From assembly GCA_965203485.1 (NCBI GenBank), contig OZ241892.1, forward strand, positions 2,304,001-2,368,000: a stretch of DNA of 64,000 nucleotides. Reading direction: 5' to 3'. The notes under the pieces were generated by a model. The model had not been told where the DNA came from. It saw nothing but the letters and a program-made list of their open reading frames with translations, and searched no databases. A program made the translations under genes and the position numbers. Positions 23,083 to 28,629 of the stretch are shown here, one piece after another. The stretch's first letter is position 1, and each line of letters begins with the position of its first letter. Source of the DNA: Longimicrobiales bacterium. GTDB taxonomy: Bacteria > Gemmatimonadota > Gemmatimonadetes > Longimicrobiales > Gaopeijiaceae.

Positions 23083-23597
23083 GGCGGGCCAGCCCCAGCA
23101 GGGTCGGCCTCGCCGAACGAAGCCGGATCGAGGGCCAAGATGTCGTCGGCAAAACGATATCCGTGTGCCGCCAGTCCCGCGGCCAACGTGGACTTGCCCG
23201 CCCCCGGCGGCCCCGTGAAGGCATGGACGTCGTCTCCCGCGCGGGCCGTGTTGGCACTGGCATGCATGGGAAGCAACCTCCCAATGAGCATCCCATACGG
23301 GACCCACGATCGCGTCTTCTCCGCCATTCGCCTCATTGTTGCGGCGTCCCGGCCGGACGGCCATGCGTCAGCGAACGGTCCGGCCATCCTCCAGCGGGAA
23401 GCGGCTGCCGTTCCATGTGGTGAACGGCAAGCGGCCTTCCACGCACTGGCGCCGTGGCGCGTTCCACGCCGGCTTCGGCAAGGACTCCGGCGCCGGTCCG
23501 CGCCAGACGGTCACGTCGCTGCCATGGTCGCGCAACCAAGGCGACCCCGCCCGCTCCAAGTCCGGGTCGGCGTCGACGGTGAACGGTGCCAGCCTAG
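23079..23597 (-). pseudogene. Truncated, frameshifted copy of kinase C
   Basis: DNA and protein match to 33376-33900 ('PFTVDADPDLERAG', 'GPPGAGKSTLAAGL', 'FADDIL'); no start codon, internal stop. Confidence 0.85.
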
Positions 23598-23803
23598 CAG
23601 GTGGGTCCTGCAGAGTCGGAGTTGGTCTTGAGTGTGGGGTCCCCGGGTTCGCCGCAGCCGCTGCCGGGGTAGAAGGAGCCGATGCGGTCGAAGGGGGAAC
23701 AGTCGAGCTTGGGGGGCGTCCACGGCCGTCTGGCCCCCTTGGCCGATCGTTCCTCGGTCTGCGCGCTCAACAGGGGGGGGGGGGGGGGGGGGGGGGGGGA
23801 CAT
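23594..23803 (-). CDS. Lasso-type precursor A1 (core region GSFYPGSGCGEPGDPTLKTNSDSAGPTC)
   Basis: Leader WTPPKL (W/YxxPxL RRE motif); upstream AAGGA; in frame through C27. Confidence 0.85.
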   Translation of the reverse strand: MSPPPPPPPPLLSAQTEERSAKGARRPWTPPKLDCSPFDRIGSFYPGSGCGEPGDPTLKTNSDSAGPTC

Positions 23804-23862
23804 GCATGGAGTTCTTTCCTTTGCCGAAGAGGTCCGAAATGCCCGAAGAAGCCAGCGGCGTC

Positions 23863-23891
23863 AAGGTAGCTCGGGCCGTCAAGGGAGGCAA
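23863..23891 (-). promoter_or_regulatory. Putative sigma70-like promoter TTGCCT-N17-TACCTT, present in the cassettes
   Basis: Partial consensus with 17-bp spacing, about 60 bp upstream of the precursor ATG. Confidence 0.35.
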
Positions 23892-24518
23892 GGAAGCGGC
23901 CCCGGAGATTGTCGCAGGCTCTTCGCTGAACCTGGTGGTTCGCGGTCTACCGCCCAGGCGCGGGAAGCGGTCGAACGCCGTCTTCAGCTCCGCGCCCGGC
24001 ACCCACTCCCCCGTCGCCGCCATGTGGGACCCCACATGTCCAATCGACACGCTCCCCAACGCGGCCAGCCAGCCCCCGGACCTGTTCCGCCTTTCGGCGC
24101 TCGAGCTCCCGGCGCACCGCCGGCTCCGTGATGCCGCTCACGGCGTTTCCCAGCTCATCTCATGCGCTTCGACCCCCCCCCCCCCCCCCCCCGAGGATGC
24201 TGCCTCCCCGACTGAGCATCCCACACGGGACCCACGATCGCGTCTTCTCCGCCATTCGCCTCATTGTTGCGGCGTCCCGGCCGGCCATGCGTCAGCGAAA
24301 CGGTCCGGCCATCCTCCAGCAGGAAGCGGCTGCCGTTCCATGTGGTGAACGGCAAGCGGCCTTCCACGCACTGGCGCCGTGGCATGTTCCACGCCGGCTT
24401 CGGCAAGGACTCCGGCGCCGGTCCGCGCCAGACGGTCACGTCGCTGCCATGGTCGCGCAACCAAGGCGACCCCGCCCGCTCCAAGTCCGGGTCGGCGTCG
24501 ACAGTGAACGGTGCCAGC

Positions 24519-24737
24519 CTAGCAGTTCATGGGTGTGGCGGCATCATCGGAGTTGGTCTTGTCAGTTGGGCTCCCGGGTTCGTAGCAACCGCCGCCGGGG
24601 TAGAAGGAGCCGATGCGGTCGAAGGGGGAACAGTCGAGCTTGGGGGGCGTCCACGGCCGTCTGGCCCCCTTGGCCGATCGTTCCTCGGTCTGCGCGCTCA
24701 ACAGGGGGGGGGGGGGGGGGGGGGGGGAGAGAGACAT
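24519..24737 (-). CDS. Lasso-type precursor A2 (GSFYPGGGCYEPGSPTDKTNSDDAATPMNC)
   Basis: Same leader; in frame through TC repeat plus C24. Confidence 0.85.
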   Translation of the reverse strand: MSLSPPPPPPPLLSAQTEERSAKGARRPWTPPKLDCSPFDRIGSFYPGGGCYEPGSPTDKTNSDDAATPMNC

Positions 24738-25443
24738 GATGGAGTTCTTTCCTTTTGCCGAACAGGTCCGAAATGCCCGAAGAAGCCAGCGGCGTCAAGG
24801 TAGCTCGGGCCGTCAAGGGAGGCAAGCAAGCGGCCCCGGAGATTGTCGCAGGCTCTTCGCTGAACCTGATGGTTCGCGGTCTACCGCCCAGCCGCGGGAA
24901 GCGGTCGAACGCCGTCTTCAGCTCCGCGCCCGGCACCACTCCCCCGTCGCCGCCATGTAGGGACCCCACATGTCCAATCGACACGCTCCCCAACGCGGCC
25001 AGCCAGCCCCCGGACCTGCTCCGCCTTCCGGCGCTCGAGCTCCCGGCGCGCCGCCGGCATCCATGATGCCGCTCACGGCGTTTCCCAGCTCATCTCATAC
25101 GCTTCGACCCCCTGAGGATGCTGGCCTCCCCGACTGAGCATCCCACACGGGACCCACGATCGCGTCTTCTCCGCCATTCGCCTCATTGTTGCGGCGTCCC
25201 GGCCGGACGGCCATGCGTCAGCGAAACGGTCCGGCCATCCTCCAGCAGGAAGCGGCTGCCGTTCCATGTGGTGAACGGCAAGCGGCCTTCCACGCACTGG
25301 CGCCGTGGCATGTTCCACGCCGGCTTCGGCAAGGACTCCGGCGCCGGTCCGCGCCAGAGGTCACGTCGCTGCCATGGTCGCGCAACCAGTGCGACCCCGC
25401 CCGCTCCAAGTCCGGGTCGGCGTCGACAGTGAACGGTGCCAGC

Positions 25444-26375: not shown

Positions 26376-26587
26376 CTAGCAGGTAACGCCTCCGGAAGGC
26401 TGGGAGTTGGTCTTGTATTTGGTGCTCCCGGGTTCGAAGCAGTTGCTACCGGGGTAGAAGGAGCCGATGCGGTCGAAGGGGGAACAGTCGAGCTTCGGGG
26501 GCGTCCACGGCCGTCTGGGCCCCTTGGCCGTTCCTCGGTCTGCGCGCTCAACAGGGGGGGGGGGGGGGGGGGGGGGGAGAGAGACAT
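26376..26587 (-). pseudogene. Lasso-type precursor A4 (GSFYPGSNCFEPGSTKYKTNSQPSGGVTC) with a 4-bp leader deletion
   Basis: GGCCGTTCC at ~26526 versus GGCCGATCGTTCC in the other units. Confidence 0.75.
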
Positions 26588-27296
26588 GATGGAGTTCTTT
26601 CCTTTGCCGAAGAGGTCCGAAATGCCCGAAGAAGCCAGCGGCGTCAAGGTAGCTCGGGCCGTCAAGGGAGGCAAGGAAGCGGCCCCGGAGATTGTCGCAG
26701 GCTCTTCGCTGAACTTGATGGTTCGCGGTTTGCCGCCCAAGCGCGGGCGGTCCGGTCCACGTTCTTGCGCAACGCCGCGAACAGCCTCTCGACACGAATC
26801 GTCTTGCCGCGTCCGGTCAGCCACCGGTCCATCGACACGCTCCCCAACGCGGCCAGCCAGCCCCCGGACCTGCTCCGCCTTCCGGCGCTCGAGCTCCCGG
26901 CGCGCCGCCGACTCCATGATGCCGCTCACGGCGTTTCCCAGCTCATCTCATGCGCTTCGACCCCCCGAGGATGCTGGCCTCCCCGACTGAGCATCCCACA
27001 CGGGACCCACGATCGCGTCTTCTCCGCCATTCGCCTCATTGTTGCGGCGTCCCCGCCGGACGGCCATGCGTCAGCGAACGGTCCGGCCATCCTCCAGCAG
27101 GAAGCGGCTGCCGTTCCATGTGGTGAACGGCAAGCGGCCTTCCACGCACTGGCGCCGTGGCATGTTCCACGCCGGCTTCGGCAAGGACTCCGGCGCCGGT
27201 CCGCGCCAGACGGTCACGTCGCTGCCATGGTCGCGCAACCAAGGCGACCCCGCCCGCTCCAAGTCCGGGTCGGCGTCGACGGTGAACGGTGCCAGC

Positions 27297-27513
27297 CTAG
27301 CAGGTAACGCCTCCGGAAGGCTGGGAGTTGGTCTTGTATTTGGTGCTCCCGGGTTCGAAGCAGTTGCTACCGGGGTAGAAGGAGCCGATGCGGTCGAAGG
27401 GGGAACAGTCGAGCTTCGGGGGCGTCCACGGCCGTCTGGGCCCCTTGGCCGATCGTTCCTCGGTCTGCGCGCTCAACAAGGGGGGGGGGGGGGGGGGGGG
27501 GGGAGAGAGACAT
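27297..27513 (-). CDS. Lasso-type precursor A5 (core identical to A4); ATG out of frame, in frame from TTG 27479
   Basis: 34 nt between ATG and the conserved TTG (+1 shift). Confidence 0.75.
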
Positions 27514-27625
27514 GATGGAGTTCTTTCCTTTGCCGAAGAGGTCCGAAATGCCCGAAGAAGCCAGCGGCGTCAAGGTAGCTCGGGCCGTCAAAGAAGGCAA
27601 GGAAGCGGCCCCGGAGATTGTCGCA

Positions 27626-28100
27626 GGCTCTTCGCTGAACCTGATGGTTCGCGGTCTACCGCCCAGGCGCGGGCGGTCCGGTCCACGTTCTTGCGCAACG
27701 CCGCGAACGCCAGCTTCTCGGCACGAGTCTTGCCGCGTCCGGTCGGCCACCGGCAACGCGTCCTCGCGAGCGCGGCGCTGTCCTGGGCCAGCAGCTCGCG
27801 GTGTTCGGCGTGCCGCGCCTTGTCCACCGCGTCCGCCTGGTGCTCGGCCACATGGAAGCGGTCGAACGCCGTCTTCAGCTCCGCGCCCGCCACCCACTCC
27901 CCCGTCGCCGCCATGTTAGGGATACCACATGTCCATCGACACGCTCTCCAACGCGGCCAGCCAGCCCCCGGACCTGCTCCGCCTTCCGGCACTCGAGCCC
28001 CCGGCGCACCGCCGACTCCATGATGCCGCTCACGGCGTTTCCCAGCTCATCTCATGCCCCCCCCCCCCCCCCCCCCCCCCCGAGGATGCTGCCTCCCCGA
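27626..28100 (-). mobile_element. Longest internal ISL3 transposase fragment (unit 5)
   Basis: 'AFDRFHVAEH..DAVDKAR..EHRELL' and 'RTARAWAV' are ISL3 transposase signatures; GGCTCTTCG IR at 27626. Confidence 0.85.
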
Positions 28101-28410
28101 CTGAGCATCCCACACGGGACCCACGATCGCGTCTTCTCCGCCATTCGCCTCATTGTTGCGGCGTCCCGGCCGGACGGCCATGCGTCAGCGAACGGTCCGG
28201 CCATCCTCCAGCAGGAAGCGGTTGCCGTTCCATGTGGTGAACAGCAAGCGGCCTTCCACGCACTGGCGCCGTGGCGCGTTCCACGCCGGCTTCGGCAAGG
28301 ACTCCGGCGCCGGTCCGCGCCAGACGGTCACGTCGCTGCCATGGTCGCGCAACCAGTGCGACCCCGCCCGCTCCAAGTCCGGGTCGGCGTCGACGGTGAA
28401 CGGTGCCAGC

Positions 28411-28629
28411 CTAGCAGTTCAAAGGGATTCCTCCTAGATTAGTGGAGTTGGTCTTGTCAGTTGGGCTCCCGGGTTCGTAGCAACCGCTGCCGGGATAGAA
28501 GGAGCCGATGCGGTCGAAGGGGGAACAGTCGAGCTTGGGGGGCGTCCACGGCCGTCTGGGCCCCTTGGCCGATCGTTCCTCGGTCTGCACGCTCAACAGG
28601 GGGGGGGGGGGGGGGGGGGGGGGAGACAT
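28411..28629 (-). CDS. Lasso-type precursor A6 (GSFYPGSGCYEPGSPTDKTNSTNLGGIPLNC)
   Basis: Same leader; in frame through C25. Confidence 0.85.
   Translation of the reverse strand: MSPPPPPPPPLLSVQTEERSAKGPRRPWTPPKLDCSPFDRIGSFYPGSGCYEPGSPTDKTNSTNLGGIPLNC

Follow-up and report, generated by a model that had tools for sequence, protein, structure and literature searches.

Introduction

Several described systems come close to the one presented here. Class III lasso peptides (e.g., BI-32169) have a Cys within the ring and a second Cys at the C-terminus, and paeninodin-type lasso clusters combine a split B1/B2, an HPr-like kinase, a sulfotransferase and a nucleotidyltransferase, the C-terminal Ser of their product being phosphorylated. 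Homopolymer contingency loci, at which poly-G/C tracts bring about phase variation, are familiar from Neisseria, Campylobacter and Helicobacter. Hypervariable precursor cassettes are, as a kind, likewise already known: those of Prochloron didemni (pat/tru, hyd, tom) vary over less than 30 bp in otherwise identical DNA (PMC3062557), prochlorosins come in arrays with indel-rich cores (bioRxiv 2020.03.09.984088; PMC10783134), and lasso clusters with several precursors sharing their leaders have been reported (PMC13381572). The origin of such hypervariability in the cores of peptides made by the ribosome and modified after translation (RiPPs), within near-identical DNA, has been an unsettled matter since the studies of Prochloron and the prochlorosins. 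Here, we describe a 64,000-nucleotide stretch of a Longimicrobiales bacterium genome (GCA_965203485.1, contig OZ241892.1, positions 2,304,001 to 2,368,000; hereafter the window, to which all positions refer unless indicated otherwise), in which six putative precursor genes form a tandem array (23594..28629) adjoining what is, by its gene content, a lasso-peptide gene cluster.

The locus resembles Prochloron in its short hypervariable product-coding cassettes, near-identical surroundings, residence in a marine invertebrate symbiont and recombinational exchange (PMC3062557), but differs in its lasso chemistry, in having four alleles within one tandem array, in its dead insertion sequence (IS)/pseudogene flanks that provide a neutral yardstick, and in a frameshifting C run in every gene. 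With the prochlorosins it shares many precursors per genome, a conserved leader, indel-diversified cores, tandem arrays and nearby transposase fragments, although those are lanthipeptides with no fixed scaffold, whereas a fixed ring/disulfide scaffold is predicted here, along with probable C-run switches. The enzyme set and the WxxPxL leader are those of paeninodin-type clusters (leader motif, PMC13381572), yet there are three kinases, two sulfotransferases and a P450 here, and the precursors stand in a six-copy array, have two Cys, a predicted Tyr1 and cores ending in Cys. The single disulfide predicted between a ring Cys and the C-terminal Cys is reminiscent of class III (BI-32169), from which the locus departs in its longer cores (25-28 residues), their aromatic first residue and the presence of tailoring enzymes. 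Finally, long C/G runs just inside 5' coding regions, which in this genome also lie beside methyltransferases and surface genes, recall contingency loci, except that natural-product precursor genes are concerned here and that the switching is predicted from sequence. Compared with the literature searched, what is new is the lasso setting, the presence of four alleles in an array with a dead-flank clock, the scaffold with its predicted Tyr1 and disulfide, and the probable switching by frameshift; that literature, most subscription journals being outside of it, gave no description of phase-variable RiPP precursors or hypervariable lasso arrays.

Divergent cores between dead flanks

The array consists of six direct-repeat units of about 925 nt each, one of them longer (start-to-start spacing 921-1120 nt), and in minus-strand order every unit has an ISL3 fragment, then upstream DNA (about 115 nt), then a short precursor gene and finally a kinase-like fragment of about 310 nt. 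All six precursor genes thus lie on the minus strand: U1 (23594..23803, 69 amino acids, predicted core YPGSGCGEPGDPTLKTNSDSAGPTC), U2 (24519..24737, 72 amino acids, predicted core YPGGGCYEPGSPTDKTNSDDAATPMNC) and U6 (28411..28629, 72 amino acids, predicted core YPGSGCYEPGSPTDKTNSTNLGGIPLNC) are in frame, and U3 (25444..25666, with the core of U2), U4 (26376..26587, predicted core YPGSNCFEPGSTKYKTNSQPSGGVTC) and U5 (27297..27513, with the core of U4) have their ATG out of frame in this assembly.

An earlier note on this DNA had described variable cores inside near-identical cassettes, and the contrast itself is confirmed: over the 15 unit pairs, the mean pairwise difference is 22.9% in the core, as opposed to 1.4% in the leader, 1.5% in the kinase fragment, and 3.4% and 3.8% in the two IS parts, and 36 of 84 core columns vary, compared with 36 of 677 in leader and flanks (Fisher p 4e-19). 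The number of distinct cores is, however, four rather than six (U1, U2=U3, U4=U5 and U6), and, of the surroundings described in that note as almost invariant, the IS parts are not so in structure, as they bear internal deletions of two kinds (one in U1/U2, the other in U3/U4/U6, neither in U5); in addition, the leader of U4 has lost 4 nt, and U6 has V in place of A. The flanks are dead on two counts, namely the frameshift that the kinase fragments of all units share relative to the intact paralogue at 33349 and the internal deletions of the IS; each core sits between two dead pieces of DNA of the same apparent age, an internal clock of sorts.

Among U1, U2, U4 and U6, silent sites vary at 5 of 12 positions in the core and at 29 of 573 in the flanks (p 3e-4, approximately eightfold), and the proportion of silent differences (pS) is 0.41 at variable core codons versus 0.13 at invariant ones; two- or three-base differences make up 16 of the 31 differing codon pairs, and the tail has G or C at only 15 of 30 third codon positions (GC3), versus 0.80-0.84 in neighbouring cluster genes. 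The proportion of amino acid-changing differences (pN) is 0.38 at variable codons, compared with 0.015-0.04 in the flanks, and, by the very definition of these codons, 0 of 152 pooled sites at the invariant ones. Diversifying selection in the sense of dN/dS >1, one of the two explanations offered in the earlier note, does not follow from these figures: over the colinear Tyr1-Ser18 part, the six allele pairs give 0.70, 3.24, 0.39, 0.53, 0.28 and 0.30, i.e., five of six below 1, and the pooled pN/pS is 0.65 overall, 0.94 at the variable codons, of which there are seven (about one, rather than well below it, so that the refutation foreseen in the note does not apply either), and, with the alignment chosen, 0.88-1.21 in the tail, all of these being comparisons of four alleles only, with non-independent pairs and low power. 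The silent sites of the cores vary much more than the dead DNA on either side, an excess for which point mutations under amino-acid selection do not account by themselves, and recombination among older alleles or local hypermutation has to be invoked; the cores would, in other words, be either older than their own flanks or locally hypermutated. Selection on the product we would infer only indirectly, from the way in which the divergence begins and ends at the predicted edges of the mature peptide while sparing the scaffold.

As for how the array came about, an ISL3 element stands upstream of a precursor with a kinase pseudogene downstream, and a single IS/pseudogene junction arose and was repeated five times. 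Next to U6 is a deleted ISL3 remnant (28744..29394, minus strand), whose insertion point is some 115 nt upstream of the U6 ATG, with both ends kept (GGCTCTTCGC / GGCGCTTCCC), which we take to be of the ISL3 end type, and with flanking 8-mers that match at 6 of 8 positions. The longest internal copy is that of U5 (27626..28093, right limit approximate, minus strand, with a DDE_Tnp_ISL3 match and a C25 run at 28057-28081); the U1 fragment (23917..24200, right limit approximate, minus strand) has a C20 run at 24173-24192, and pieces like it begin at 24851, 25779 and 26700. The dead 5' fragment of an HPr-kinase-like gene lies at 28104..28410 on the minus strand (about 87% identity to 33379-33689), is repeated at approximately 26990-27296, 26069-26375, 25137-25443 and 24212-24518, and ends on the left in a longer, frameshifted copy (23106..23593, minus strand) that forms the non-duplicated left end of the array.

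Recombination within the array, and cores in other samples

The other explanation offered in the earlier note was homogenisation of the flanks by gene conversion. Homogenisation through recombination finds support in the four-gamete test, in which 224 of the 561 pairs among 34 informative columns are incompatible (flank columns conflict too, and some core columns may be homoplasies), and in the flank sites, whose groupings of the units contradict one another. In U3, an IS part of the U4 type is combined with the U2 core; codons 5-18 are common to U2 and U6, whose tails are unrelated. The units are recombinant mosaics.

The stretch is present in seven public runs, at small shares; a label was visible for three of these, in each case that of a sponge metagenome. 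Contigs (and contigs only) from four of these runs (X1, X3, X5 and X6) were aligned to U6 and its right flank, and among the matches listed X1, perhaps the source sample, has cores of U1, U2 and U4 type. In X3, from the same study as X1, one contig differs from U6 by 14 letters and 3 gaps, exactly as U2 does, at a depth of 232.6, and a U4-length contig has a depth of 115.9 next to 113.3 for a single-copy contig, the ratios of 2.05 and 1.02 being suggestive only, as contig depth is not copy number; X3 also has the same tandem junction as here and no U6 letter at 28432-28433. Contigs of public runs contain the tandem junction as well as cores with the lengths of U1, U2 and U4, so that the cores are not long-read errors. 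X5 (two core contigs, with 10 letters/0 gaps and 11 letters/3 gaps) and X6 (22 letters/7 gaps over 286 nt) are sponge metagenomes of two further studies; judged by such counts, they correspond to none of the four cores and appear to carry other ones. Contigs of X5 leave the reference at the IS edge, one of them joining across that edge with 20 letters on its short side, and both X5 and X6 have a different tandem junction, from 29147 back to 28259 (short side of 108 letters in X5), which is not derivable from the junction of this genome by simple deletion and is taken as a second, independent one.

C runs and probable phase variation

A feature absent from the earlier description is a run of 24-27 C within 14 nt of the ATG of every cassette (C27 at 23773-23799 in U1; C24 at 24704-24727, 25629-25652, 26554-26577 and 27480-27503 in U2 to U5; C25 at 28599-28623 in U6). 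Run length differs among the copies, and somewhere along an X5 contig that spans the region there are 19 gap letters. Gene callers skip the out-of-frame copies, and the protein collection contains the three in-frame precursors only. Genome-wide, there are 42 C/G runs of 14-30 nt, none of 12-13 nt and no A/T run longer than 8 nt, and 14 of the 34 runs outside the array follow an ATG within 15 nt, compared with 23.7% at random places (p 0.018). The 20 long frames scanned next to these 34 runs include two DNA methyltransferases, a TonB receptor, a sugar transferase, a deacetylase, two SGNH hydrolases and a fibronectin giant. When 40 regions of sister species (all 31 runs of G001 and 10 of 11 of G002) were compared, a homologous flank was found here for 31, and 9 of these 31 project onto a long run (chance 0.4% each); because such runs retain their position between species, they are taken as real and persistent.

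The same design recurs in another genus. In the genome G125, the cyclase has four matches and B2 one; its precursors number 16, fall into two unrelated core types and all read AGGAG-ATG-C14-22 (3 of 16 in frame), and its pS is 0.07 in the leader motif versus 0.16-0.40 in parts of the core, the same silent-site pattern as in the array. Phase variation of the cassettes through slippage in the C run is, on these patterns, likely. Loss of a mismatch-repair gene as the cause of the runs was considered and rejected, the MutS and MutL families both being present.

Some of the other runs deserve mention in their own right. Long C/G runs lie inside or just before two DNA methyltransferase genes (G000:C1:624966, L071, and 3323431, L089), possible switches of the phasevarion type; a C20 run (G000:C1:2516940, L085), some 80 nt upstream of where mutS seems to start, could modulate mismatch repair; and in three species a bacterial sugar transferase has a conserved G run at its 5' end (G000:C1:811424; G001 L104; G002 L124). 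Seven open frames of at least 3000 codons start at C/G runs (G000:C1:711833, 735029, 1188594, 1250183, 1562790, 1858135 and 3011519), mostly with signal-peptide-like starts and with no Pfam family in the first 1500 residues. Four fragmented relatives (G052, G036, G006 and G021) have 20-121 C runs of at least 14 nt, some at contig ends and possibly artefacts.

Precursor scaffold and predicted product

The scaffold G-S-F-Y-P-G-x-x-C-x-E-P-G-x4-K-T-N-S-x(6-9)-C-stop, which the earlier note had set out, is present in all six units, with tails of 6, 8, 8, 7, 7 and 9 residues; none of the four cores has a stop or a frameshift, and every change in tail length is a multiple of three. The leader motif WTPPKL occurs in all six cassettes and as RTPPKL in a seventh, distant precursor (37000..37242, minus strand, predicted core YPGDGCFEPGSATNKTASDNTIGPFCN), which has no C run and has Arg for the Trp of WxxP; WTPPKL fits the [Y/W]xxPx[L/V/I..] type, the leader motif given for the RiPP recognition element (RRE; PMC13381572). 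A profile search of 1.84 billion representatives returned six proteins (the window's own, four true relatives and one repeat protein), and YPG, EPG and K, as well as the YPG..E arrangement, are invariant in all nine aligned family sequences. A relic precursor piece with no leader (33051..33115, plus strand; the 33059 relic) carries a stop codon at the Tyr1 position and a further core variant (PRDGCYEPGSGTTK).

The core is predicted to start at the Tyr, which would make Glu8 the ring residue, the cleavage site itself being our inference. A start at the Gly, as proposed in the earlier note, would require an 11-residue ring, outside the core positions 7-9 that LassoPred allows for the ring Asp/Glu (PMC12214591); the Tyr start is favoured because Glu then falls at position 8 and because Thr stands at leader position -2 in two relatives and one relic. 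P0002, P0003 and the 33059 relic have Thr there, the six cassettes have Ser, the 37000 copy has Ala and G125 has Ile/Val; Thr -2 is described as highly conserved, though not absolute, in lasso peptides (PMC12670498). First residues observed in lasso peptides are Gly, Cys, Ser and Ala, with Asn added (PMC12670498), and Trp appears in the LassoPred table (PMC12214591). The predicted product would thus have a Tyr1-Glu8 ring and one disulfide, from Cys6 to the C-terminal Cys; as all four cores terminate in Cys, the Ser acceptor of the paeninodin type is missing.

Further searches with the precursor yielded little: only chance-level matches in 60 relatives (E<=1), one match in 400 genomes of the order that proved to be chance on inspection, no match in genome_contigs and two chance matches in metagenome_contigs for the core pattern, no relative in genome_contigs for P0001, and nothing in Atlas or PDB. 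A sigma-70 promoter-like site was looked for near U6, and none was found. Elsewhere in this genome, broken orphan YPGDGCFE precursor copies lie at G000:C1:781209 and 1477217 (minus strand), the latter also with a copy of window 36700-37000, and three proteins from other assemblies (P0009, P0010 and P0011) combine a poly-Pro + [RK]PWTPPRL leader, like that of the cassettes, with unrelated cores.

Weighing the explanations

The reading we favour, and consider reasonably probable, is that older core alleles are shuffled by recombination between homogenised flanks, with each gene likely switched by C-run slippage. Unequal crossing-over and gene conversion would homogenise the leader and the dead flanks, which would then serve as homology arms moving cores within the array and between strains; conversions that erase a distinct core would be selected against, so that variety would persist solely in the mature peptide, the scaffold being held by purifying selection. 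B1 would bind WTPPKL, B2 would cleave after the leader Ser-Phe, C would close the Tyr1-Glu8 ring, Cys6 would pair with the C-terminal Cys, and the kinases, sulfotransferases, nucleotidyltransferase and P450 would decorate Ser/Thr/Tyr. Slippage in the C runs would leave about one third of the copies in frame at once, and clonal cells would make different subsets.

Not everything fits this reading, which seems to us somewhat better than an even bet. Besides the low power of the allele comparisons, no donor allele with core-level silent divergence in its own flanks was read out, and the blocks GAACCCGGG and AAGACCAACTCC show silent change at 0 of about 4.7 sites, which disfavours old alleles, though not significantly. 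The U4-type contig of X1 has a depth of 9.4, equal to single-core depth, so that two copies (U4 and U5) are unsupported there and one of them may be strain-specific, and the second junction rests in X6 on a short side of 22 letters only. As for the switch, which genes are on and which are off cannot be read reliably here, because single-contig assemblies are untrustworthy for the length of homopolymers; 6 of 22 genes in frame (array and G125 taken together) would equally be expected from random lengths or assembly errors; 11 of the 16 G125 genes are in the +1 frame (p 0.006); the two C runs at 24173 and 28057 expanded within dead IS DNA, so long runs can arise without function; and the 20 run-neighbouring frames also include three of housekeeping type (S1, MutS and an amidohydrolase), eight without a Pfam family and one weak match. 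With regard to the lasso assignment, the cassettes have Ser instead of Thr at -2, and the cyclase scores 157 bits against the lasso model NF033535, whose cut-off is 525.

The silent-site excess could also have come from local hypermutation, i.e., a targeted or error-prone process other than a diversity-generating retroelement (DGR) that rewrites short core blocks after duplication, selection keeping the scaffold. The clustering of silent changes in variable codons, the many multi-base codon differences, the low tail GC3, the sharp edges and the in-frame length changes would all suit it, but no candidate enzyme was identified, the sharing of whole cores (U2=U3, U4=U5) and of half a core between U2 and U6 indicates that cores move as blocks, and the same cores recur in X3, so they are not freshly scrambled; we regard it as unlikely. 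Its boldest form, in which a dedicated non-retroelement diversifier actively rewrites lasso cores in short blocks between nucleotide-invariant anchors and poly-C slippage picks the variants per cell, as a small-molecule analogue of antigenic variation, is an unlikely prospect to the same degree. The NNC form of several variable codons, such as an AAC template would yield, brings a DGR acting on the core to mind; nevertheless, RVT_1 gave 0 candidates in the genome (the control was detected in 3 of 14), no template-like copy was found in the genome or in viral contigs, and the tail lengths change. With neither reverse transcriptase nor template repeat found, a DGR is rejected for this assembly, and as an explanation in general we give it hardly any credence.

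Classical positive selection, with point mutations fixed fast in the core after a recent duplication, would account for the raised pN at variable codons and for the single pair with dN/dS of 3.24, but not for silent sites raised equally or for the five pairs below 1, and it is decidedly improbable. Quite unlikely, if a little less so, is neutral decay, according to which a decaying cluster would have acquired the array and the C runs as side effects of IS-driven amplification and of slippage, their variety being without present function. Many relics speak for it: the array has pseudogene flanks, the precursor at 33059 and those at two other places in the genome are broken, the 37000 copy has Arg for Trp, U4 has its 4-nt deletion, and C runs lie in dead IS DNA. 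Against it, C, B1, B2 and the tailoring genes are open, the four cores are free of stops and frameshifts with tail lengths changing in multiples of three, the second, independent tandem junction retains the same gene, and G125 shows the same design. Could strain haplotypes simply have been strung into a false array? This is a metagenome assembly with apparent small indel noise, no contig of the examined runs spans the stretch, and the U4-type depth in X1 looks single; against this stand the junction sequence and near-integer core depths of X3, the distinct IS deletions per unit and the tandem junction also seen in X5, which make an artefact very improbable; at most one or two units could be spurious.

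Gene cluster and relatives

Around the array, the lasso cluster has expanded through inverted duplication. On its left and on the minus strand lie an open HPr-kinase-like gene (22147..23075) and a sulfotransferase (21251..22135), both with approximate starts, and on its right and on the plus strand a second HPr-kinase-like gene (29498..30442), a sulfotransferase (30439..31332, start approximate), a cytochrome P450 (31697..32992) and a third HPr-kinase-like gene (33349..34311), the intact paralogue of the repeated fragment; the HprK_rel_A matches of the three open kinase frames are weak, all below cut-off. Further along the plus strand follow the lasso cyclase C (Asn_synthase, 34750..36687; PF00733 at 75.8 bits, cut-off 21; best NCBIfam match the lasso cyclase model, below its cut-off), B1/RRE (PqqD, 37266..37577; best PDB match TbiB1, E 8e-11), an NTP_transf_5 nucleotidyltransferase (37649..38725, start approximate) and the B2 leader peptidase (38722..39213, start approximate). 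PF05402 and PF13471 are above cut-off for B1/B2, and the NCBIfam lasso B2 model NF033537 reaches 78.5 against a cut-off of 33. Among the frames scanned (a part of all frames), there was no transporter or isopeptidase.

Directly before the relic precursor, window 33005-33045 holds a remnant of a second cyclase 3' end. Pieces of a repeated protein family without a Pfam match, with many copies elsewhere in the genome, lie at 20307-21176 and 36748-36990, and a phosphorothioated-DNA-binding restriction endonuclease (NF045808, above cut-off) marks the left edge of the island at 18975-20060.

The cyclase as a query has matches in 7 of 301 family genomes, and the ATG-C-run-WxxP pattern occurs in 2 of 260, a pattern that undercounts, finding 4 of the 16 precursors of G125. 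In that genome (L056-L070, L046-L053), the precursors are spread out between P450 matches (at least 12) and the 4 cyclase matches, with two small tandem arrays and the single B2 far away, and the cores are of the Gly1-Asp8 type, Cys-rich and ending in Ser. A short-contig lasso cluster in G211 (L055:3150-3600) has two precursors with a WSAP[RK]L leader and no C run.

Significance

The locus can be read as a natural tolerance map for one lasso cyclase, with variation at ring positions 4, 5 and 7, at loop positions 11-14 and in the tail from 19 onward, and the predicted Tyr1 ring and disulfide, together with several tailoring enzymes, add to its interest. As a guess, the peptides may serve for antagonism or for signalling in the dense microbial community of a sponge, in which it would pay to be a rare variant. 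The locus is also a likely case of phase variation of natural-product precursors, and, if so, one bacterium would keep a changeable peptide library.

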